Source: an uncultured Gemmatimonadales bacterium (GTDB lineage: Bacteria; Gemmatimonadota; Gemmatimonadetes; Longimicrobiales; RSA9). Taken from it: 64,000 nt of DNA. The translations under genes and the position numbers were made by a program. The notes beneath the pieces are model-generated. The model saw only the letters and a program-made list of their open reading frames with translations. It was not told the origin of the DNA and did no database searches. The stretch is taken from assembly GCA_963798845.1 (NCBI GenBank), contig CAWCUS010000002.1, forward strand, positions 544,001-608,000, written 5' to 3'. Position 1 is the first letter of the stretch. The number at the start of each line of letters is the position of its first letter. Of the stretch, positions 1-10,037 are shown one piece after another.

Positions 1-13
1 AGAGGGCGCTGGG

Positions 14-256
14 TTGCGGGTTCTTTCAACGAACGGCGCGAGCACGCAGCAGACAGATGAAGTAACGGTCGTCGAATGGGAGTGGATTGCAACTGTACCC
101 ATTTTGGAAGACCATCGTTGGATTGAGCCAGGGGAGACAATTGTTGACAACATCATCTTCAACATTCCCGCCCCGATTCAGGGACCACTCAGACTCGAAT
201 TAGTCGTTGCGTCAAAGAAGTACTCGTGGTGCGCGAGTTCAGTGTCAGTTCCATGA
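14..256 (+). CDS. 3' part of a hypothetical cassette gene (probably starts before the window)
   Basis: Open frame ending TGA at 256; lower-GC cassette-like composition; lies upstream of first attC-like site. Confidence 0.5.
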   Translation: MRVLSTNGASTQQTDEVTVVEWEWIATVPILEDHRWIEPGETIVDNIIFNIPAPIQGPLRLELVVASKKYSWCASSVSVP

Positions 257-264
257 GGAGAGGA

Positions 265-399
265 ATGATGGCGGAAAAGGGCGGTTCCAAGGAGAGGAAG
301 CTGGTCACGGAACAAAAGAAGAAGTCCAAGGACCAAGTGCGTAGGATCGAGACGGAAAAGCAAAAGACCAAAGACAAAGCTGGCAAAGGCAAGCAGTAA
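265..399 (+). CDS. Small Lys-rich basic protein, 44 aa (MMAEKGGSKERKLVTEQKKKSKDQVRRIETEKQKTKDKAGKGKQ)
   Basis: Hand-translated, below ORF-track cutoff; purine-rich RBS GAGGAGAGGA directly upstream. Confidence 0.5.
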   Translation: MMAEKGGSKERKLVTEQKKKSKDQVRRIETEKQKTKDKAGKGKQ

Positions 400-464
400 G
401 TTCTCGACATGCCTGCCCGTTGGCGCGTTGAAGCGCTGGGCTGGTCTGAGGAGGGCCCAACAGC

Positions 465-617
465 AGATAACAAACGGTTGGCGCCTGCGCTCGCTTTGCT
501 CGCTCCGGAGAACCCCGCATTAACGTCCTGGCGCCGGTTGAGCGAGAGCGTAGTCTCGATGGGAGCGGCGCCTGGTTAGGTCGCGGAGGCGGGGTCGCCA
601 ACCTGGAAACGTTATCT
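465..617 (+). repeat. attC-like site 1
   Basis: AGATAAC-AAACGGTTGGCGCC ... GGTCGCCAACCTGGAAAC-GTTATCT. Confidence 0.88.
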
Positions 618-823
618 GAAAGCCACTGCCCGAACGGCAACTCGCCGGGAAGCACCTTGGACCGGACTATCGTTCGGTAGGCATAGCATGTTGAGTGACA
701 ATCAACTTGACGTGTCCGAAGCCCGGCAGGCACTTTGACCGTCGTTGTTTGCAGTCGAGAGCGAGTTGGACGTCACACTACATTGGCGGCTGATTTCGAA
801 ATGCCAGCCGCGCCAGGAGTGAC

Positions 824-1285
824 ATGGAGAAGCGCGAGGCCAAATGGAAAATGGTGGGGTCGGTTCTTGGGGGATTGGGCGTCATCGGATCGCTTGTATT
901 CGTTGCGCTCGAGATCCGTCAGAACACCGAGGCCGTGCGCAGCGCAACGATACAGGCTATCTCGGAGCAATCATTCACAGCAGTAGCCCAGCTTGTTGAG
1001 AATGCCGATCTCCGCACGGCTTACGAGGCGGCGAGCACAGGAGCGACTCTCACTCCGGAACAACGTTTCCAGCTGAAGATGTTCTACCTCGGGATCATGC
1101 GGCTCCAGCAGAACCGGTATCTCCAATCTCAGCTGGGCGTACTCGATATGAACACGCTCCTTTTCGTCGGTGGGCGGGGTGGCGCGTACGATTTGCCATT
1201 CTTCGCTGAGTATTGGGCCGAAGATCGCGACCAATATCCCCCTGAGTTCCAAGACTTCGTTGAGCGCGTACTGCTTCCGCAATAA
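824..1285 (+). CDS. Hypothetical cassette protein with N-terminal TM helix (related to 7192..7719)
   Basis: GGAG upstream; hydrophobic VLGGLGVIGSLVFVALEIRQNT followed by helical domain ending FFAEYW...YPPEFQDFV. Confidence 0.75.
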   Translation: MEKREAKWKMVGSVLGGLGVIGSLVFVALEIRQNTEAVRSATIQAISEQSFTAVAQLVENADLRTAYEAASTGATLTPEQRFQLKMFYLGIMRLQQNRYLQSQLGVLDMNTLLFVGGRGGAYDLPFFAEYWAEDRDQYPPEFQDFVERVLLPQ

Positions 1286-1524
1286 GGGGGCTCTCCGTGA
1301 GCGTCAATGGAGTTGTGTTGCCCTGGCCTAGCGGCGCCGGTTGGCATGAAGTCGGTGCTGCCGCAATCCTTTCGCGGCAGATCGCTGCGGTCGCTGGCGG
1401 TTGCCAAGCTGTGGCAGCAGACTTCGGAGTCGTTAGAGATCGCTCTGGGATCCAATCCACGTACACAGAACGGGTTGGCACGGCGTCCAAGTAGATAGCC
1501 ATGCCGGCACGGGCAGTGGCCATC

Positions 1525-1693
1525 AGATCACTCCGCATGGCCGTTTGCTCGCTTCGCTCGCACACCAGCCGGAGTTGCGAGAGGATCTGAACGGAAAGAG
1601 CTTGGGCCGGCTGGACGCGCCCTCTAGCGGAGGTCGCCGCCTGCGGCGGCTCGCTCCGCCGCCGGGCGCGTCGGCCATGCTTTTTCGTTATGT
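1525..1693 (+). repeat. attC-like site 2 (divergent sequence, R'' AGATCAC)
   Basis: AGATCAC-TCC-GCATGGCCG ... CGGCCATGC-TTTTTC-GTTATGT; perfect 9-bp inner inverted repeat. Confidence 0.7.
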
Positions 1694-1757
1694 GCCAGCT
1701 CCGACGGCTGGTTGTTAGATTAGAGGGAGCAGGAATACCCCCTTTGTCGAGGTGCTC

Positions 1758-1985
1758 ATGCCGAACGTGGATCTCTCCGAAATTCTGCGACTGCCGGTGT
1801 CGGAGCGAATCGACGTTGTCCAGCAGATCTGGGACAGCGTCGCCGCGGATGCAGACGCGGTGCCGGTAAAGCCCGAACAGCGAGAGGAGTTGGATCGGCG
1901 GCTGAAGGAGCATCAGGAGAACCCGGATGACGTCGTGGAGTGGAACGAGGTTGAGAAACGGATCCGCTCCCGTCACAACCTGTGA
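1758..1985 (+). CDS. Putative addiction module antitoxin (TIGR02574-like)
   Basis: LPVSERIDVVQQIWDSV...QREELDRRL...W.EV pattern; overlaps downstream toxin (GTGA). Confidence 0.85.
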   Translation: MPNVDLSEILRLPVSERIDVVQQIWDSVAADADAVPVKPEQREELDRRLKEHQENPDDVVEWNEVEKRIRSRHNL

Positions 1986-2275
1986 AGGTCATCCTTCGCA
2001 GCATTGCAGAACAGGATGTCGCGGCAGCAGTCGGATGGTACGAAGAGCAGAGCTCAGGTCTGGGTGATCGCTTTCTGCTGAACGTCCGTGCTGCACTCGA
2101 GCGGATCGGAGAACATCCGGAGGCGTACCCCCTGGTGCACCCTCCGCACCTACGACGGATCTTGCTGTCGGATTTCCCCTACGGGTTGTTCTACCTGATG
2201 GAGCTGGACCGAGCTGTGGTCACGGCGTGCTTCCACGTGCGGCAGAATCCGAAGCGCTGGAGCAGTCGTGGCTGA
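1982..2275 (+). CDS. RelE/ParE family toxin
   Basis: AEQDVAAAVGWYEEQSSGLGDRF...HPEAYP...RRILLSDFPYGLFY...CFHVRQNP. Confidence 0.88.
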   Translation: MKVILRSIAEQDVAAAVGWYEEQSSGLGDRFLLNVRAALERIGEHPEAYPLVHPPHLRRILLSDFPYGLFYLMELDRAVVTACFHVRQNPKRWSSRG

Positions 2276-2297
2276 AAGGGCGCTGCGCTCCGCCGGC

Positions 2298-2450
2298 ACA
2301 TAACAAACGGTTGGCGCCTGCGCTCCCTGCGGTCGCTCCGGGGAACCCGGCGAATGACCTGTTGGCTGGAGGAAGGGCTGCGGGTAATTCAGAAGATGGG
2401 GCGCGATCCGGCGAATTGGACGCCGGGTCGCTCACCTGGAAACGTTAGGC
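2298..2450 (+). repeat. attC-like site 3
   Basis: ACATAAC-AAACGGTTGGCGCC ... GGGTCGCTCACCTGGAAAC-GTTAGGC. Confidence 0.88.
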
Positions 2451-2469
2451 GCCACTGCTGGTGGTTCAT

Positions 2470-2844
2470 ATGCCCAAGAAGGAGCAGTACAGGAAGAAGC
2501 AGATGCGGGATCTGGCTCGGGTTGCGTATGAGCGTGAACTCGAGGCGGGGCTCGAACAGCTACGCGAGCCGTTCCATGCCTGGGAGAACGGGGACATGGA
2601 CGCGAGTGAGTTGTCGCTGCGGATATCGTTCTTCTCGATGGATGCGCAGAAGCGGATTGAAGGGGTCTACTCCGGCTTGGACAAACGTACCCTGGTCGCG
2701 CGGGGCGTCGCGCTGGGTTTGCTGGAAGAGGCAGACCTTCCGCCGAAGCTGAAGGAAGAACTCACCGGGGCCATCGATTTCTTCAGGTCGCAATCCCAAC
2801 GTGAGGCAGAGGAGGACGCGGCCAAGAAGGGCAGCGGCGCCTAA
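2470..2844 (+). CDS. Hypothetical helical cassette protein
   Basis: Single ORF filling the cassette; TAA stop lies inside R'' box GCCTAAC. Confidence 0.75.
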   Translation: MPKKEQYRKKQMRDLARVAYERELEAGLEQLREPFHAWENGDMDASELSLRISFFSMDAQKRIEGVYSGLDKRTLVARGVALGLLEEADLPPKLKEELTGAIDFFRSQSQREAEEDAAKKGSGA

Positions 2845-2990
2845 CAAACGGTTGGCGCCTGCGCGGCCTGCGGCCGCGCCGGAGAACCCGCCGCGGCCGC
2901 CTGGGAGCTGGTAAGGTTCGTGTGGCTTCGAATGGTGATCGCGCTCTGGAGGTTTCGGCGCGGCGGGTCGCCAACCTGGAAACGTTAGAC
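2839..2990 (+). repeat. attC-like site 4
   Basis: GCCTAAC-AAACGGTTGGCGCC ... GGGTCGCCAACCTGGAAAC-GTTAGAC. Confidence 0.9.
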
Positions 2991-3510
2991 GCCATGCTTG
3001 CGGTGTGGTGATGAGATAAGGTGCAGGTCGGTCGTCTTTGGAAGAGAAGCGAGCGCATGAGCACGAAAGCAGTACCCATGATCCATGTGCCTGATGTCCG
3101 TGCGGCGGTCGAGTGGTACAAAATGGTGGGCTTTCGATTCTTGGAAGGGCATGAGGAGGATGGGGAAATGACGTGGGCGGCGCTCTCGCTGGGGTCAAGT
3201 GAGTTGATGCTTAACGCCGGCGGCCGCGCTAGTGACGCCGAGCGCAGGGACGTCGATCTCTACGTCTACTCTGAGGATGTCGCAGAAGTCTTCGAGCGCC
3301 TCAAAGGAAGGGTAGATATCATTGCACCGATCAGTGACACGTTCTACGGGAATAGGGAATTCATTGTCCGGGATCTCAACGGCTTCTTGTGAGTTCCCCG
3401 AATTCTGACCGCTGATCTCTCGAAAATCTGGCCGGCTGAGGAGCCTCCGTAGAATACTGTAGTCCCGTCCCGGGCAGGATGGAGTTCCTGTCAGATGGAG
3501 GCGGGGGAGG

Positions 3511-4920
3511 ATGCTCAGGGTGATCGATCGACATGCGGTGCATGCGCTGCTGGAGGCGGGGCAGAAGCAGACGGAAATCGCGAGGCAGCTGGGGATCTCG
3601 GAGCGGTCTGTCCGTCGGATCTCGAAGGAGCCGCCGGTGGCGGAGGGAGACGATGCGGCGGAGAGGAAGCGCCGGGGGATCGGGCGTCCCGCGGTGCCGG
3701 AGGCGGTGAAGCGCCGGCTGGTGGATCTGATCGCGGAGGATCCCGAGGCTCCACCCCTGGAATACCTGCGTCAGCTTCGGGAGGAGGGGGCGGAGCTGGC
3801 GGAGAGCACCTTCTACCGGGTCTTCCGGTTGGAGAAGGGGAAGCTGCCGGCGGAGCTGATGGTGCGGTTCGAGGGGGTGGCCGGGGAGTTCGCCCAGTTC
3901 GATTTCGGTCAGGCCGACGTCCGGCTGCTGGATGGACGGAAGAAGCGAGTTCACTTCGCGGCGTACCGTCTGAAGTACTCGCGGTGGGTGTGGGTGGTGA
4001 TCGTGCCGGACGAGCGGATCGAGTCACTCGTCCGGGCACTCCTGGCCGGCTTCGAGCATTCGGGCGGGGTGCCGCTCCGGGTGGTCTTCGACAATCCGAA
4101 GACGGTGGTGGTGGGCCGCGACGACCGGGGCCGGCCGATCTGGAATTCCACGCTGGCCCAGGTCGCCATCGACTATGGCTTCACGATCGAGCTGTGCACG
4201 CCCAGGAGCCCGCAGCAGAAGGGATCGGTGGAGAATCTGGTGGGGTGGGTGAAGCGGAGCTTCTTCCGGGCCCGCCGCTTCGCTGAGCTCGACCAGGACC
4301 TCCCCCGTCAGCTCCTGGACTGGCTGATCGGGGGGAATGAGGAGCGGCCATCCCGGGCCACGAAGGAGATCCCCAAGATCCGGCTGACCGCAGAGCAGGC
4401 GCGGATGAAGCCGCTGGCCATCCCGCCGGCCGAGTACGGTCTGCGTTACGCTGTCCACGTGGGACCCACCGCGCTCGTGGACTTCCAGGGCGTGCGCTAC
4501 GCCATGCCGGCGGGTGCGTGCGGGATCCCGGCCACGCTCCACCTGTACCCGGACCGGCTCCGGATCGTCACCACCGGCGCCCGCTTCGAGGCCACCCACC
4601 CCAGGTTTCCAAAGATCGGAAACACCAGCTACCTGCCCGGCCAGCGGGCCGAGCAGCTGGCGGCCGTGGCCGGTGCACGGAAGCGCCTCTACTTCATGCG
4701 GGAGCGAATCCTGGAGCTGGGGCCCGTAGGAGAGGGCTACCTGACGGAGCTCATCCACGCCCGACCCCACACATGGAAAGGAGACGTGGAGCGCCTCTTC
4801 GCCCTGCTCGAGGAGCTCGGCCAGGAGCGCTTCCTCCGCCTGCTCCAGCGCGCGCTCTTCCAGCGGCTGATCGGAGCTGAGTACGTGATCGGGCTGGCGG
4901 CGAAGGAGGTGGCCTCATGA
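3511..4920 (+). CDS. istA: IS21 transposase IstA
   Basis: N-terminal HTH; AQFDFG, VFDNPKT, QQKGSVENLVG DDE motifs. Confidence 0.93.
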   Translation: MLRVIDRHAVHALLEAGQKQTEIARQLGISERSVRRISKEPPVAEGDDAAERKRRGIGRPAVPEAVKRRLVDLIAEDPEAPPLEYLRQLREEGAELAESTFYRVFRLEKGKLPAELMVRFEGVAGEFAQFDFGQADVRLLDGRKKRVHFAAYRLKYSRWVWVVIVPDERIESLVRALLAGFEHSGGVPLRVVFDNPKTVVVGRDDRGRPIWNSTLAQVAIDYGFTIELCTPRSPQQKGSVENLVGWVKRSFFRARRFAELDQDLPRQLLDWLIGGNEERPSRATKEIPKIRLTAEQARMKPLAIPPAEYGLRYAVHVGPTALVDFQGVRYAMPAGACGIPATLHLYPDRLRIVTTGARFEATHPRFPKIGNTSYLPGQRAEQLAAVAGARKRLYFMRERILELGPVGEGYLTELIHARPHTWKGDVERLFALLEELGQERFLRLLQRALFQRLIGAEYVIGLAAKEVAS

Positions 4921-5693
4921 AGACTCCGGTGCCGCTGGACGACCTCGACGCCATGCTCAAGCGCCTCCACATGCCGACCATCCGGCGCCTGTATGCGGAC
5001 CTGGCGATCCGGGCCGAGGAGGAGGGCATGAGCTACCGCACCTTCCTCGAGCTGCTGGTGGCCGAGGAGATCGCTCACCGGGCGCAGACCCGGATCACCC
5101 GGTCCGTCCGCAAGGCCCGCTTCCCCTTCCTCCGCACCATCGAGGAATTCGACTTCACCTTCCAGACCAGCGTCCGCCTCCAGATGCTCGGCACGCTGCT
5201 GGGGCCGGAGCTGGTGAGCGAAGGCCGGTGCGCCATCTTCAGCGGCCCGCCGGGTCGAGGGAAGACCCACATGGGGGTAGCCATCGGCTACCGAGCGATC
5301 CAGAACGGATTCGAGGCCCGATTCACCACCGCGGATGAGCTGATCGGCGCCCTCTCCAACGCGGCCGCGGAGGGACGGCTGGACGAGGCGCTCGAACCCT
5401 ACGTCCACCCCCACGTCCTGATCATCGACGAGCTCGGCTATCAGAGCTATGCCGCCGATGCCGCCAACGTGCTCTACCGGGTGGTCAACGACCGCTACCT
5501 CAGGCACCGACCCATGATCGTCACCACCAATAAGCCTCTGGCCGCCCTCGGTCAGGTGCTGCATGATGCCGATCTTGCGGAGGCGATCCTCGACCGGCTC
5601 CTGGAGCGCGGCACTCACTTCGTGCTCCGCGGCCGCTCCTACCGCACCCGCCATCTCAAACAGGAGGAGACCCCGGACTCTGAAGCCGCCTAG
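4917..5693 (+). CDS. istB: IS21 helper ATPase IstB
   Basis: Walker A GPPGRGKTH, Walker B LIIDELGY, IVTTN, AILDRL. Confidence 0.95.
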   Translation: MKTPVPLDDLDAMLKRLHMPTIRRLYADLAIRAEEEGMSYRTFLELLVAEEIAHRAQTRITRSVRKARFPFLRTIEEFDFTFQTSVRLQMLGTLLGPELVSEGRCAIFSGPPGRGKTHMGVAIGYRAIQNGFEARFTTADELIGALSNAAAEGRLDEALEPYVHPHVLIIDELGYQSYAADAANVLYRVVNDRYLRHRPMIVTTNKPLAALGQVLHDADLAEAILDRLLERGTHFVLRGRSYRTRHLKQEETPDSEAA

Positions 5694-5849
5694 CTCACGC
5701 TCCCGGCCGGCCAGAATTTCGAGAATTAACCGGACATAGTTCAGAGAACCCACATGGCTGACGTTTGGACAGCAACTCGAGGCCGCAGAGCAATCGGATG
5801 CTACTCCGAGCGTCTGAGGCCCAGCGTCTAGAGGGGCGCAATCACGGCG

Positions 5850-6955
5850 CTTGAAGTCAACTTTGAAGTGCAACGTTCATAGTGTTGATCCGGGCTGATT
5901 CTCATATATCTCCGCGGGGGTGAGGAAGCCGAGCCGCTTGCGGGGTCGGTGGTTGAGGGCGGCAGCGATCCGGTCACAGTGGATCTGGGTGACTCGAGCC
6001 ATGCTCTGACGCTTCGGGAGATACTGCCGGATGAGGCCGTTCGTGTTCTCGCAGGTGCCTCGCTCCCAGGAGTGGTGGGGAGCGGCGAAGTAGACCGTGG
6101 CGCCGGTGGCCTTCTCCAGGGCTTTGTAGCCGTGGAACTCGGTCCCATTGTCGAGGGTGACGGTTCGGATGCGGCGGCCGGCGTTGCGGATCAGGGAAGT
6201 GGCGCACCGGTTCGTGGCGTCGGCGGTCCGGCCGCGCAGCTTGCCGAGGAGCAGGTAGCCGGTCTTCCGGTCCACCAGGGTGAGGACGCAGTGGCGGTCG
6301 GAGGATCCGATGACCGTGTCTCCTTCAAGGTGGCCCACGCGCGAGCGGTTCTCTGCGCCGGGCGGTCGCTCGGAAATGGGACGCTTGCCGGCAAGACGGC
6401 CGCGGCTGTCGTAGCTGCGGTAGCGCTTCCACTTCTTCTTCCTCGCGCCGCGCAGGTACTGATAGAGGAGGCCGCCCCTGCGGCGGTCCTCCCAGACGTA
6501 GCGATAAATGGTCTCGTGGCTGATGCGGAGCACGCCCGCCCGGGCGAGTCGGCCAGTGATCTGCTCGGGGCTCCACAGCTGCTGGAGCAGCGAACAGACC
6601 AGGGCCCAGTCATCGCCGCGGAAGCGTCGGTTCCGTCGGGATCGCGTGCGGCGGCCGCGGGTCATCTCGTCGGCCACCGCCGGCCGGTAGGCGCGGTCCT
6701 GTCTCGAGTTGCGCGTGATCTCCCGGCTGATCGTGCTCGGACTTCGGTCCAGCGCGCGGGCAATGCCGGCCTGACTGAAGCCTTGTTTTCTGAGCGCCGA
6801 GAGTGCATGTCGTTCACCTGAGGTGAGCTGGTGATATCCCATGAGCCCCTCCTATTTCTTGGTCGAAACAGGAAGCTCTGGGGTGTCCCAGCTCATCTCA
6901 ACCCCGGCACTCCTTCGAGCGGAGTCGAGCGTTGCACTTAGTTTGTGAATCCAAG
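5850..6955 (-). mobile_element. IS30-family insertion sequence
   Basis: 26-bp imperfect IRs (CTTGAAGTCAACTTTGAAGTGCAACG / CTTGGATTCACAAACTAAGTGCAACG), 3-bp direct repeat GCG (5847-5849, 6956-6958). Confidence 0.9.
5877..6842 (-). CDS. IS30 family transposase
   Basis: STISREI.RN, WSPEQI, ISHETIYRY, GHLEGDTV, TLDNGTEF, WERGTCENTNGLIRQYLPK. Confidence 0.95.
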   Translation of the reverse strand: MGYHQLTSGERHALSALRKQGFSQAGIARALDRSPSTISREITRNSRQDRAYRPAVADEMTRGRRTRSRRNRRFRGDDWALVCSLLQQLWSPEQITGRLARAGVLRISHETIYRYVWEDRRRGGLLYQYLRGARKKKWKRYRSYDSRGRLAGKRPISERPPGAENRSRVGHLEGDTVIGSSDRHCVLTLVDRKTGYLLLGKLRGRTADATNRCATSLIRNAGRRIRTVTLDNGTEFHGYKALEKATGATVYFAAPHHSWERGTCENTNGLIRQYLPKRQSMARVTQIHCDRIAAALNHRPRKRLGFLTPAEIYENQPGSTL

Positions 6956-6957
6956 GC

Positions 6958-7109
6958 GTATAATAAACGGCTGGCGCCTGCGCGGCCTTCGGCCGCTCCG
7001 GAGAAACCCGGCGCAGCCGTCCTTGAGCGGTCCGACTGACATGTAGTTTCGAAGGTTGTTGAGCCGGGGAGGCCTGGCGCGGCGGGTCGCCAGCCTGGAA
7101 ACGTTATCG
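6958..7109 (+). repeat. attC-like site 5
   Basis: GTATAAT-AAACGGCTGGCGCC ... GGGTCGCCAGCCTGGAAAC-GTTATCG; compensatory GGCTGGCG/CGCCAGCC. Confidence 0.82.
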
Positions 7110-7191
7110 GCCAGCGCAGAGACGGATGGTCCGACGCAGAATATTGTTGAGTACGAATCTCCTGCGACCGTAGACTGCGAGGTTACCTCTG

Positions 7192-7719
7192 GTGAACTGG
7201 AATGCGATACAAGCCGTTGCCGAGCTCGTCGCGGCGTTTGGGGTCCTCGCGAGCCTGCTCTATTTGGCGTCGCAGGTGCGGGACGCCTCTCTCGAGGGAC
7301 AACGGTCCAGGTACAACGAGTTGTCCGCGAGGGTTACGGACATTTCCAGAGACTGGGCAATCAACGACACACTGTCGGACATCATGTTCCGCGGGCTCCG
7401 CAACCCCTCCGACCTCGGACCCGCCGAGATCTTCCGGCTGTACTCGTCGATCTACGGGACCATGAAGGTCTGGGAGGCATCCTATCACTACTCGCTCCAG
7501 CGTGGCGTACATGCCTGGGGAGCCAGTGGACTCCGAGCGACAATGTCGTCCCTGATGGCGTTCCCGGGGATGCAGCATTACTGGAGGTCACGACGTTCGT
7601 GGTTCTCGAGCGACTTCCAGGACGAGGTAGATCGAGTAGTCGAGTTGGGAGCTCCCCGGATGGATGAGGACTACGGTGATTCGGTGGAGTCGGCGGCACC
7701 TCATGCACGGCCCAGCTGA
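7192..7719 (+). CDS. Hypothetical cassette protein with N-terminal TM helix (related to 824..1285)
   Basis: WNAIQAVAELVAAFGVLASLLYLASQVR...PGMQHYWRSRRSWFSSDFQDEVD. Confidence 0.78.
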   Translation: MNWNAIQAVAELVAAFGVLASLLYLASQVRDASLEGQRSRYNELSARVTDISRDWAINDTLSDIMFRGLRNPSDLGPAEIFRLYSSIYGTMKVWEASYHYSLQRGVHAWGASGLRATMSSLMAFPGMQHYWRSRRSWFSSDFQDEVDRVVELGAPRMDEDYGDSVESAAPHARPS

Positions 7720-7759
7720 TCCTCCAAGCGTGGCGACGTCGACCGATGGCGGCGCCGGC

Positions 7760-7935
7760 CGATAACACAGTTTCGATCGGACTCGAGCTCCTTGAGGAGC
7801 AGAGAAGCAATGGCGTCCGGGATCGGCAGTTCAAGGCCGGCGTTCCTGGGCCTCTGGTGAGGAGATTGCAGTTTCGAAGGTGGCCGCGCGCTGGAGCTTT
7901 CGGCGCGGCGGGTCGCCAACCTGGAAACGTTAAGT
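7760..7935 (+). repeat. attC-like site 6 (left arm not of the family type)
   Basis: CGATAAC at 7760; right ~85 bp match sites 4/7 and end CTGGAAAC-GTTAAGT. Confidence 0.72.
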
Positions 7936-7995
7936 GCCATCACGTTGGCTCGCCCCAAGCGTTAGATTGAGGCGGCTACCAACGGGAGGAACTCA

Positions 7996-8202
7996 ATGAA
8001 GTACCGCGTGCTGATCGAGCAGGACGAGGCCGGTTTTTTCGTGGCTGAGGTGCCGGCTCTGCCTGGGTGTGTGAGTCAGGGCGATACGCGGCGGGAGGCG
8101 CTCGCCAACATCCGAGAGGCGATCGCGGGTTATCTGGAGAGCCTCGAGGATCACCAGGAGCCGGTGCCTCCCTCGATCCATGAGGAGATCGTGGAGGTGT
8201 AG
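7996..8202 (+). CDS. hicB: HicB family antitoxin
   Basis: YRVLIEQDEAGFFVAEVPALPGCVSQGDTRREALANIREAI; GGAGG RBS. Confidence 0.92.
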   Translation: MKYRVLIEQDEAGFFVAEVPALPGCVSQGDTRREALANIREAIAGYLESLEDHQEPVPPSIHEEIVEV

Positions 8203-8427
8203 GTGGCCGAGCTGCCAGTCGTCTCGGGACGCGAGGCAGTGAAGGCGTTCGGCAGGATTGGCTACGGTGTCGATCGCCAGCGTGGAAGTCACATCATTCT
8301 GAGACAGGCGGAACCCCCTCATCGCCGCCTGACGATTCCGGACCACAAAGAACTTCGGAAGGGAACGTTACGGGCTCTGATCCGACAGGCTGGATTGTCG
8401 GTGGATGAGTTCGCCGCGTTGCTCTAG
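8203..8427 (+). CDS. hicA: HicA family toxin
   Basis: RQRGSHIIL...LTIPDHKELRKGTLRALIRQAGL. Confidence 0.92.
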   Translation: MAELPVVSGREAVKAFGRIGYGVDRQRGSHIILRQAEPPHRRLTIPDHKELRKGTLRALIRQAGLSVDEFAALL

Positions 8428-8482
8428 AAACAGCGAAACCGCTCGTTCGGTCAGCATCTCGAAGCTGGTTGGGCGTGACGGC

Positions 8483-8633
8483 AATAGACAAACGGTTGGC
8501 GCCTGCGCGGCCTGCGGCCACTCCGGAGAACCCGCCCCGATTAGCTGGACTCTGGTGAGATTCGTGCAGTTTCGAAGGTGATCGCGCGCTGAAGGTTTCG
8601 GCGTGGCGGGTCGCCAGCCTGTGAACGCTGAGC
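8483..8633 (+). repeat. attC-like site 7 (degenerate R boxes)
   Basis: Body closely resembles site 4; boxes AATAGAC and GCTGAGC deviate from AAC/GTT. Confidence 0.75.
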
Positions 8634-8767
8634 GAAAGGTGCCTTTGGAATCCCAATGGGACGTCAGACAAGGGAGAGAAGGAGGGATGCTGGAGGAGAC
8701 GTGGCGATGTAACTGAAGTGAATAGGGCGGACGGCTGGCGACGCCCGAAATATCAAGCGGAGGCGCG

Positions 8768-9265
8768 ATGCGAAGAAACCCCTCAGCGACGGTGACGGAA
8801 TTCCTCGAGAGTCTTCCGGGTGACCGGCAGAGGACCGTGGAGGCAGTACGGGCCCTGATTCGGCGACACCTGCCCCATGGATACGAGGAGGTGGTGGCGA
8901 AGAATATGCTGGTCTACCAGGTGCCGTTGAGCCGGTATGCGGATACGTACAATGGCTATCCGTTGTGGTATGTGGCCTTGGCGTCGGAGAAGTCGTATCT
9001 CTCGCTTCACCTGATGCCGGTCTACGGGAGCGCTATCTACGCGGATCGCCTAAGGGAGGGCTTCCGGAAGGAAGGCAAGCGCCTGAACATGGGTAAGGCA
9101 TGCGTGCGGTTCCGCAAGATCGAGGACCTAGCCCTCGATCCGATCGGTGAACTGGTTGGAAGCGTGTCGGTTGATCGTTGGGTGGAGATTGCCCAAAGTG
9201 CGCGATCTGGAAGGTCGCGGGACGGGTCCGCTGCTCGCGCGACAGCCCGTGGGAGGGACGGATAG
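8768..9265 (+). CDS. DUF1801/YdhG-like protein
   Basis: TVTEFLESLP...LP.GYEE...YVALASEKSYLSLHLM...MGKACVRF. Confidence 0.8.
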   Translation: MRRNPSATVTEFLESLPGDRQRTVEAVRALIRRHLPHGYEEVVAKNMLVYQVPLSRYADTYNGYPLWYVALASEKSYLSLHLMPVYGSAIYADRLREGFRKEGKRLNMGKACVRFRKIEDLALDPIGELVGSVSVDRWVEIAQSARSGRSRDGSAARATARGRDG

Positions 9266-9372
9266 ACGCGGTGGGGAAGCGTTGGTTGGGGATTGTCCCC
9301 GCCGAGGTGGTGCGGCGACGATCGCCTGGTTGGTCGGCGATCGATCGCCGCTCCAGCGTCATCGGGGCTGAT

Positions 9373-9482
9373 GATCAACCACCGGATGCGGAATCAGGAC
9401 GCCATGCTTGCCGAGCTTCGTGCTGCCGGGGCGGAGGTGGAGCACCCGCTCGAAAGTTAGCGCCGACCTGGAAACGTCAAGC
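9373..9482 (+). repeat. attC-like site 8 (degenerate, GTC core)
   Basis: Right end CGCCGACCTGGAAAC-GTCAAGC; left box GATCAAC tentative. Confidence 0.55.
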
Positions 9483-9524
9483 GCCATTCCCAACCAGAGG
9501 AACGCGCGTGTCGAAAGCGGCGGC

Positions 9525-10037
9525 ATGATCGACGGTCCCCACATCGAGGTGGCGGACGGCATGGCCGTCGTAGGTATTCATTGTCCCATGAGCTTCACCG
9601 AGCCGATGATGCGGGAGCTGTGGCAAGAGTTTCGGCCAAGGGTCAAGGATGTAAAAGGCAGAGCATCGGACAGCTTCATCTCGATGCGCGTCTATGACGA
9701 ACCGGTGGGAGCGGCGCCCGCTCCGGGATCGAAATTCGAGCAGTGGGCGGCGGTCGAGGTGGACGCATCAGCGGAGGTACCGCAGGGAATGGACTCTCAC
9801 AGGCTCGCGGGTGGGCTGTACGCAGTATTCACCCACCGCGGTCGAGCGGACGCGTTCGGAGATGTGGTACGTTACATCTACGGAGACTGGCTGCCGAGAT
9901 CAGAGTTCGAGCTGGCAGATCGTGAGTTTTTCGAAGTGTTGGGGCCTTCGTATCGTCCGGATGATCCGGAGGCGAGCGAGACGATCTGGATTCCTGTCCA
10001 GGAACGAGGCAGGCCCGGAGATCGGAACGGCGCTTGA
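9525..10037 (+). CDS. GyrI-like small-molecule binding protein
   Basis: WAAVEV...VPQGM...GGLYAVFTHRG...YIYGDWLPRS...FEVLG...SETIWIPV. Confidence 0.85.
   Translation: MIDGPHIEVADGMAVVGIHCPMSFTEPMMRELWQEFRPRVKDVKGRASDSFISMRVYDEPVGAAPAPGSKFEQWAAVEVDASAEVPQGMDSHRLAGGLYAVFTHRGRADAFGDVVRYIYGDWLPRSEFELADREFFEVLGPSYRPDDPEASETIWIPVQERGRPGDRNGA

Follow-up and report, generated by a model that had tools for sequence, protein, structure and literature searches.

Introduction

Canonical integrons are built around an integron integrase (IntI), whose defining mark is an extra domain close to patch III (Messier and Roy 2001, as reported in PMC9668308 and PMC4889954). In their attC recombination sites the spacer arms measure about 5–6 nt and the R''-L'' arm carries two or three single extrahelical bases, with about 6 bp between the outermost ones (PMC5027507). 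The I2 helix of the enzyme and the extrahelical bases of the site are held to set the choice of strand and to block a second cut (PMC4792948). Standard pipelines discard recombinases without the IntI-specific insert (PMC4889954, PMC9668308). Near attC sites, Cury et al. counted no more than 50 recombinases other than IntI; the ones that fell between IntI and Xer adjoined fewer than three sites and were judged not to be IntI (PMC4889954). In an integron-like subgroup described by Smyshlyaev et al. the insertion 'is not fully conserved', and no link of such proteins to arrays is drawn there (PMC8138268). Here we analyse a cassette array in a 64-kb stretch from the genome of a Gemmatimonadales bacterium of the phylum Gemmatimonadota (G000, contig C2:544001-608000; hereafter the window, on which all coordinates are based unless C2: or another contig is given), together with the tyrosine recombinase without that insert which heads it.

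The locus resembles a canonical integron in having a recombinase gene, a putative insertion site and a long array of mostly co-oriented small cassettes (PMC4889954), and the co-oriented layout is also that of canonical integrons in this bacterial order. Its sites share with attC the AAC...GTT ends, the R and L boxes, an unpaired spacer and the placing of all extra material on the R''-L'' arm; as in canonical integrons they are homogeneous in a species-typical manner, and the cassette ends imply circular intermediates. Unlike canonical integrons, it has an enzyme that lacks the I2-helix insert, falls below the TIGR02249 cut-off and carries an N-terminal domain of about 100 residues, and sites that form a three-way junction, have no single extrahelical bases and score at most 24 bits under a model of canonical sites (R1, see below). 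As in CALINs (clusters of attC sites lacking integron integrases; PMC4889954) there is no IntI within reach of the array, and standard pipelines that require an IntI-specific profile would either label it a CALIN or overlook it; unlike CALINs, it is headed by a conserved recombinase clade. The short, Xer-length catalytic linker and the dif-like attI core recall Xer/dif, from which the system differs in that the clade lies outside the Xer group, each locus has tens of sites rather than one dif, and separate Xer-type genes are kept. We think it likely that the window covers the distal end of an integron-like, sedentary cassette platform, made up of an insert-less recombinase, an attI-like core and about 20 cassettes on one strand.

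Results

An insert-less recombinase heads the array

The array spans about 21 kb and holds about 20 cassettes. It starts at C2:532010, 12 kb left of the window, and its far end lies within the window. On the same strand, an open reading frame (ORF) at C2:530650-531783 encodes a tyrosine recombinase of 377 residues and ends 227 nt before the first cassette. The catalytic residues are complete and are invariant in the clade to which the protein belongs. Its best family is the integron integrase model TIGR02249, with 204 bits against a cut-off of 265 and with model positions 180-234 unmatched; the XerC and XerD models give 173 bits (cut-off 335) and 163 bits (cut-off 330), respectively. Compared with VchIntIA (2A3V), the protein has 26 residues where IntI has 68, meaning that an insert of about 42 residues is missing, and the linker from the GKGxKDR lysine motif to HxLRH measures 59 aa (58–59 aa across the clade) as opposed to 99–101 aa in IntI (n = 8) and 63–69 aa in Xer. 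A typical IntI does not adjoin the array, as a reading of the window from its letters alone (the sequence-only reading) had suspected: the neighbour is without the IntI insert, and the typical IntI gene of this contig is frameshifted and 530 kb distant.

A maximum-likelihood tree was built from 63 proteins and rooted on Xer, with the insert columns excluded because too few rows fill them and with one long-branched protein (L075) left out. IntI forms a clade with 100/100 support, and the new enzymes (14 rows, one of them from the unpublished genome G017) form a clade with 97/87. IntI, the new clade and one protein from a metagenome-assembled genome group together (bootstrap 97, Shimodaira-Hasegawa-like approximate likelihood ratio test 91), and the new clade lies outside the Xer group, on the IntI side of the tree. 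From these sequences, the clade is placed as the sister of IntI. Two further Xer-type genes in G000 group with Xer, and recombinases of the Candidate Phyla Radiation (CPR) fall within the same wider short-linker group as the clade. The protein left out, from Marinobacter sp. QJJ-212, is a short-linker recombinase (60 aa, very long branch) that directly adjoins a canonical IntI gene (positions 9980 (+) and 11060 (-) of the locus).

The sites fold into a three-way junction

On reading positions 1-9600 of the window, eight sites were found between 465 and 9486, all co-oriented (+) and each following one or two small ORFs (Table 1). The family motif reported from the letters, AAC-AAAC-GGTTGGCG ... 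CGCCAACC-TGGAAAC-GTT, is indeed read at 469-613 and 2843-2986, and the compensatory change claimed for site 5 (GGCTGGCG / CGCCAGCC) is likewise there. At up to two mismatches, CCTGGAAACGTT is matched nine times where 2.39 matches are expected, a count that none of 100 shuffles reaches, and the 15-mer of the left arm is matched five times against 1.23 expected. A covariance model made from the family copies (R2) recovers seven sites between 462 and 9486, five of which are its own training rows, and outside that interval a single match of 14.7 bits in the 64-kb window. Rfam, which contains no attC model, reports no family in the window at gathering thresholds. Site 2 is known from the reading and from its fold, and was not recovered by R2 at E <= 1 in the window search; its outer triplet is CAC, not AAC. 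The asymmetry noted there earlier, TCC versus TTTTTC around GCATGGCCG/CGGCCATGC, is present, but the site is not 'sequence-unrelated' to the family, because the left-arm module GCTCGCTTCGCTCGC is common to both.

In the consensus fold of 15 family sites, the L box (8 bp) and a distal stem meet a hairpin that branches off the left arm, giving a three-way junction. R2 finds 135 matches in 23 loci, 134 of which are distinct in sequence. Among the 134 distinct sites, from 11 genomes, pairing holds in 90.2% of cells as opposed to 72.5% in shuffles and 28–40% with the partner slid, in an alignment that was fitted to R2 and so favours pairing; the slid controls preserve relatedness, yet fall far short. 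Changes on both sides are seen in 26 of the 31 pairs, and compensatory change occurs in the L box, the branch helix and the distal stem alike, where pairing reaches 97%, 87% and 94%, respectively. The geometry is constant across L-box families (spacers of ~4x6-7, 8-9 bp, a left bulge of 22-30 nt, then 8-10 bp), and the unpaired excess on the left arm is the branch of about 28 nt. Spacer lengths in the window array are mixed, with 5x6 and 4x6 besides 4x7. The site as a whole can be described as a folded single strand of about 145 nt with an R box (TAAC/GTTA and cassette-specific flanks), a spacer of about 4 versus 6-7 nt, an 8-9-bp L box and, further in, the three-way junction with its branch on the R''-L'' arm and its distal stem.

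This fold accounts differently for the right-arm T that the sequence-only reading had counted as an extra base. This T is paired with the final A of the left-arm GAGAA, as A-T in 15/15 family sites, and the pair opens the distal stem; across the 134 sites it is AU in 102, GU in 8, GC in 3, UA in 2 and unpaired in 9. The CC/GG pairing proposed beside this T was discarded for the covariation-supported junction. Both strands were also folded, as had been suggested, and no bottom-strand bias was seen: the mean difference between top and bottom strand (ts-bs) is -0.32 (n = 134) versus -1.28 in canonical sites (n = 29), and the two classes do not differ (p 0.29).

Conservation extends beyond the GTT triplet in all sites (GTTAnnnGCCAT), and G(A/G)AAC stands immediately 5' of GTT in nearly all sites of all families. 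The unpaired spacer bases are conserved in sequence here, unlike those of classical attC spacers.

Comparison with canonical attC sites of the lineage

As a comparison set we used 29 canonical sites beside true IntI genes in the same lineage, parsed by constrained folding. R''/R' (…AAC / GTT…) and L''/L' boxes around an unpaired spacer are present in the window sites, as in attC. A right spacer 3 nt longer than the left had been put forward as the mark of a non-canonical geometry. However, the right spacer is the longer one in 23/29 canonical sites and the excess is 3 nt in 12/29 (2x5, 3x6, 4x7, 5x8; 6x8 is also seen), so that the +3 skew is normal for the lineage and does not set the window sites apart. 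The real distinguishing marks are the lack of two single extrahelical bases and the branched left arm. The canonical pattern (3-6 bp, one extra left-arm base, 5-7 bp, one extra base) is found in 19/29 canonical sites, and the single extrahelical-base pattern '1 nt - 5 to 7 bp - 1 nt' in 0/39 TAAC/GTTA sites behind the clade enzyme, which were parsed in the same way. The canonical L-box bulge, which had been reported missing from the window sites, is found neither there nor in this class; 28/39 of the class have a left-arm bulge of at least 10 nt.

The suspicion that standard models would miss these sites was examined with R1, a covariance model of 18 canonical Gemmatimonadales sites that stands in for IntegronFinder's attC_4. 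R1 gives canonical sites 37-103 bits, including 12 on which it was not trained, and window sites 15.8, 9.9 and 7.2 bits, with a maximum of 24 bits in the class. R2 has no matches in six canonical loci and one 21-bit match in a seventh, and 134 of its 135 matches lie within the loci of the clade.

G000 also carries a second, canonical integron at C2:1239-8200 (L018), in which an IntI gene with the typical insert is frameshifted near C2:1830 and is followed by at least seven co-oriented canonical attC sites with 38-100 bits under R1. Intact canonical IntI genes are present in the relatives G015, G009, G001, G056 and G031.

Site arrays follow one recombinase clade

Building a new covariance model and searching genomes for a co-occurring recombinase had been proposed on the basis of the letters, and the outcome is that R2 arrays follow a single enzyme clade. 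In 11 of the 14 clade loci whose downstream DNA was analysed (G000, G001, G032, G036, G010, G013, G309, G289, G393, G339 and G326) an array with 5-26 R2 matches lies downstream of the clade gene and is co-oriented with it, and this order of gene, then array is kept from 89% to about 47% protein identity. Orthologues of the recombinase are found in 20/61 close relatives at E <= 1e-40, a tally that includes the unpublished genomes G016 and G017, and in 22/401 evenly drawn Gemmatimonadota genomes at E <= 1e-55. Over 120 protein clusters with identities of >=44% are present in metagenomes, most of them annotated as XerD or simply as recombinase.

One could suppose that these are ordinary integron arrays, either CALINs or arrays split from their integrase, which are moved in trans by a canonical IntI, and that the neighbouring gene is an unrelated Xer-like or mobile-element integrase. 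Canonical IntI genes are present in G000 (frameshifted, and with the small array of its own described above), G001, G393 and G339, and also in G015. Both site classes have identical R boxes (TAAC/GTTA), and a canonical IntI could therefore act in trans where a genome has one; moreover, IntI enzymes accept diverse attC sites (PMC2095811). Nevertheless, we consider this explanation unlikely. Canonical IntI was not found in seven of the 11 array genomes (G032, G036, G010 and G013 at E <= 1e-50; G289, G326 and G309 by the cut-off), which are 92-98% complete and two of which, G032 and G289, are single contigs. The gene-then-array order persists over the whole range of protein identity, canonical IntI genes have canonical arrays of their own in which R2 finds nothing bar the 21-bit match, and the sites are without the extrahelical bases that IntI reads. 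The two other Xer-type genes of G000 group with Xer, and an IS91-type transposase (PF04986) was not found in this genome, a negative that is weak because the control genomes are silent too.

The proposal that these cassette sites form a class of their own, with a recombinase other than IntI, is thus upheld by the insert-less neighbour, by the linkage in 11/14 loci and by the R1 scores, but not by the reasons first given for it, the +3 skew and the extra T.

A 20-mer of the site, searched in the genomes of all species, matches 10 stretches where about one chance match is expected. Its matches in Aliiroseovarius (L127) and in L125 are not sites under R2, and wrong binning may account for those on small contigs assigned to other phyla. 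Exact 12-mer repeats beside 80 distant relatives reveal few arrays, by a method that misses heterogeneous sites. In the isolate Psychroserpens sp. AS72 (L024, 85-8185 and 9940-11004), a related short-linker recombinase with the same N-terminal motif adjoins an array of ~127-nt AAC...GTT sites, which is divergent from the gene by spacer polarity.

Cassette boundaries and a putative attI

An attI-like core, GGTAAC-GCAGTA-GTTAAGT, ends at C2:532010. The congener G001, whose enzyme is 89% identical, matches G000 at 98.7% identity between the stop codon and the last base ahead of GTTAAGT (C2:532010), and beyond this point the two genomes carry different cassettes. Because the identity ends before GTT, the attI junction would lie at GTT, and we regard this insertion point beside the recombinase gene as a putative attI. 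The G001 core is dif-like, with perfectly inverted 7-bp arms separated by 6 bp, and AACGCAGTA is tandemly duplicated at the putative attI of this genome. In nine genomes (from loci including L017 2010, L114, L112, L118, L120, L143, L144 and L148), (A)TAA-N2-6-A precedes the putative attI junction and GTTA follows it, which amounts to a short inverted TAAC/GTTA core.

Each unit of the array consists of an ORF and, behind it, a site. The 10 nt of a site up to and including its AAC are the reverse complement of the first 10 nt of its own cassette, and this match is better than that to the start of the next cassette in 13/15 cassettes, two of the 15 having been indexed by eye. A match between R'' and the cassette's own start is what circular cassettes require. 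Taken alone, it fits a crossover at either the right or the left end; it is the attI junction that favours the right (GTT) end. Cassettes also turn up in other genomes beside other sites: cassette 588-1531 recurs in G013 between other sites (85% identical), cassette 7905-8627 recurs in G032 (86%), and cassette C2:532627-533258 recurs in G001 (99%). Judged by sequence comparison, the cassette ends, the attI junction and the shared cassettes fit integron-type capture. Non-recombining repeats that merely separate genes, such as palindromes of the repetitive extragenic (REP) type, terminators or miniature transposons, would also be intergenic and stably folded. Such repeats would hardly be expected to accompany cassettes that are common to several genomes beside other sites, to have an R'' complementary to the start of their own cassette, to belong to a conserved platform whose contents vary between two genomes of one genus, or to be confined to arrays behind one enzyme clade, and we hold this explanation to be very improbable indeed.

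In a comparison of cassette 588-1531 with 3674-4618 of the G013 locus (L120), the ORF is the same and the R'' flank is kept (CAGATAAC or CAGATCAC), and the interiors of the following sites come from different site families, as if they were swappable at both ends.

This last observation bears on a reading in which the sites are double-stranded inverted repeats that undergo an Xer-like exchange of two strands without folding, their palindromy reflecting paired protein-binding arms. An exchange at both ends would be in keeping with it, as would an enzyme without the insert tied to single-strand recombination and a dif-type attI-like core with 7-bp inverted arms around 6 bp in G001. However, L-box and stem sequences vary and stay complementary, with 26/31 pairs changed on both sides, and these two-sided changes fit pairing rather than sequence-specific arms because complementarity is kept across different sequences. 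The arms also differ by the branch of about 28 nt and in spacer length, so that there is no symmetric duplex core, and the layout of the site mirrors attC. Duplex exchange therefore strikes us as improbable, and we retain the reading of the sites as folded single strands in an integron-like platform.

Public sequencing runs (four, from one study, with small shares and as contigs) contain short pieces of related sites and of insertion sequences that map to the window. Their loose ends begin after 7932 (GTTA) and lead into other cassettes, which is too weak to count as evidence of excision.

The N-terminal domain of the recombinase

The clade enzyme has an N-terminal extension of about 100 residues, and residues 1-105 match no Pfam family over threshold. 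HARP (PF07443) matches 38/61 clade members at E <= 1, with a best E of 8.8e-5; in this protein it scores 17 bits over residues 33-61, below the gathering score of 25. A profile of 14 N-termini compared with the PDB has as its first match 4O66, the HARP domain of SMARCAL1 (E 0.027). AlphaFold models predict a beta-beta-alpha-beta-beta-alpha domain at residues 23-90 with pLDDT >90, for which Foldseek returns 4O66 first (E 0.046) and then archaeal XPB N-terminal domains. Each of these lines is sub-threshold, and the lines agree on a predicted domain that is weakly HARP/XPB-like. A search of the ESM Atlas with the N-terminal part was uninformative (best score 0.81). The extension is missing from the CPR and DPANN relatives in the compared set. 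The substrate-recognition domains of XPB and UvsW recognise DNA that is distorted or branched. HARP proteins bind single-/double-strand junctions and other branched DNA (PMC4035279).

Cassettes, cargo and insertion sequences

The cargo of the window (toxin-antitoxin pairs, a glyoxalase and small unknowns; Table 1) is typical of integrons. An inverted copy of the IS21-family element, 99.7% identical, lies left of the window in the array (C2:535226-537591), and G001 also has an IS21-family copy (84% identity). Two opposite copies could give rise to inversion or deletion of the cassettes between them. Far from the array, at C5:360210-361116 of G000 (L019, -), two family sites flank a cassette and form with it a small satellite cluster. 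That cassette has 93% identity with C2:540704-541466 and with one in G001.

Table 1. Sites, cassette genes and insertion sequences of the array within the window. R2 scores are in bits; 'training' marks sites that are training rows of R2.
Feature	Position	Strand	Elements and remarks	R2 score
Site 1	465..617	+	R'' AGATAAC 465-471; spacer AAAC 472-475; L'' GGTTGGCG 476-483; ~28-nt left-arm branch, then distal stem; L' CGCCAACC 596-603; spacer TGGAAAC 604-610; R' GTTATCT 611-617; geometry '[4x7] 8bp [28x0] 7bp'	141.6 (training)
Cassette ORF, 153 aa	824..1285	+	no Pfam family	
Site 2 (divergent)	1524..1693	+	R'' CAGATCAC; spacer TCC 1532-1534; L'' GCATGGCCG 1535-1543; L' CGGCCATGC 1672-1680; spacer TTTTTC 1681-1686; R' GTTATGT 1687-1693	
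Antitoxin and toxin cassette	1752..2275	+	antitoxin (PF09720), ParE-family toxin (PF05016)	
Site 3	2298..2450	+	family left arm; right box CGCTCACC with two mismatches	127.2 (training)
Cassette ORF, 127 aa	2461..2844	+	no Pfam family	
Site 4 (best family copy)	2839..2990	+	geometry '[4x7] 8bp [28x0] 10bp'; canonical model R1 15.8 bits	165.6 (training)
Glyoxalase-family cassette ORF	3021..3392	+	PF00903; end interrupted by insertion sequence	
IS21-family element in glyoxalase cassette	3388..5754	+	istA 3511-4920; istB 4917-5693	
Second transposase gene, same cassette	5877..6842	-	HTH_38 and rve; presumably IS30-like	
Site 5	6958..7109	+	paired change GGCTGGCG 6969-6976 / CGCCAGCC 7088-7095; outer triplet AAT; geometry '[4x7] 8bp [29x0]'	139.3 (training)
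Cassette ORF, 175 aa	7192..7719	+	no Pfam family	
Site 6 (hybrid)	7759..7935	+	R'' GGCCGATAAC, matching the first bases of its own cassette; reverse-strand cassette remnant, then right half of family site	45.1 over 7798-7939 (non-training)
HicB/HicA toxin-antitoxin cassette	7996..8427	+		
Site 7	8483..8633	+	family left arm; right end decayed, CCTGTGAACGCT (GCT, not GTT)	146.6 (training)
DUF1801 cassette ORF	8768..9265	+		
Site 8 (last and weakest, array end)	9321..9486	+	…CCGACCTGGAAACGTC	20.3 (non-training)

Discussion

The reading of the locus as an integron-like platform with its own recombinase has several observations against it. R2 finds no match in three of the 14 clade loci (G015, G279 and G401), for which a scan by geometry gives two sites, none and one, respectively. 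IntegronFinder might still call the window sites attC, since the model evidence given here comes from the stand-in R1. The branch helix is not constant, two of its pairs being open in 32-38 of the 134 sites, and sites 1 and 3 of the window carry a direct rather than an inverted repeat in the branch. Fold energies favour the bottom strand neither in these sites nor in the canonical sites of the lineage. Read-level evidence of excision was not found in the public runs, which hold short contigs only. The canonical IntI genes and common R boxes considered above belong on the same side, as does the fitting of the alignment to R2.

By analogy with IntI, two monomers of the recombinase would bind the R and L boxes, one strand would be cut at the AAC/GTT triplet, cassettes would exit as circles and enter at attI, and the resulting junction would be resolved by replication. 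We hypothesise that the branch replaces the extrahelical bases, serving as a marker of strand and polarity and as a block to a second cut at the L box, and that the N-terminal domain, with its weak likeness to the HARP, XPB-DRD and UvsW-N domains, may read the branch in place of the missing I2 helix. The fold and the linkage to the enzyme clade are shown by the data, while how strands are cut and joined, which strand reacts and what the N-terminal domain does are inferred. There is a parallel in XerCD, which integrates the single-stranded CTX phage at dif and in which a folded single strand is thus used by an insert-less enzyme. That a sister lineage of IntI runs working cassette capture without the I2 insert, on branched sites that have no extrahelical bases and maybe with a domain that reads the branch, is a proposition to which we give even chances.

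In the literature searched, namely the main texts of articles outside subscription journals, we found no insert-less integrase clade with arrays, no branched attC and no fusion of HARP to a recombinase. The clade is common in the phylum, occurring in 22 of the 401 sampled Gemmatimonadota genomes, and the presence of a related enzyme and array in a cultured Psychroserpens isolate makes bench work feasible.

If the proposed system is real, part of the unexplained CALIN pool and many unannotated environmental arrays would belong to enzymes of this kind. A clade that is without both the insert and the extrahelical bases and yet heads long, variable arrays would serve as a natural experiment on which features the recombination of folded DNA really requires. 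It would also mean that recombination of cassettes on a folded strand is older than the mechanism based on the I2 helix and extrahelical bases, or that it arose twice. The clade would in this sense be a candidate for either a pre-integron state or a parallel solution, and it bears on the origin of integrons.

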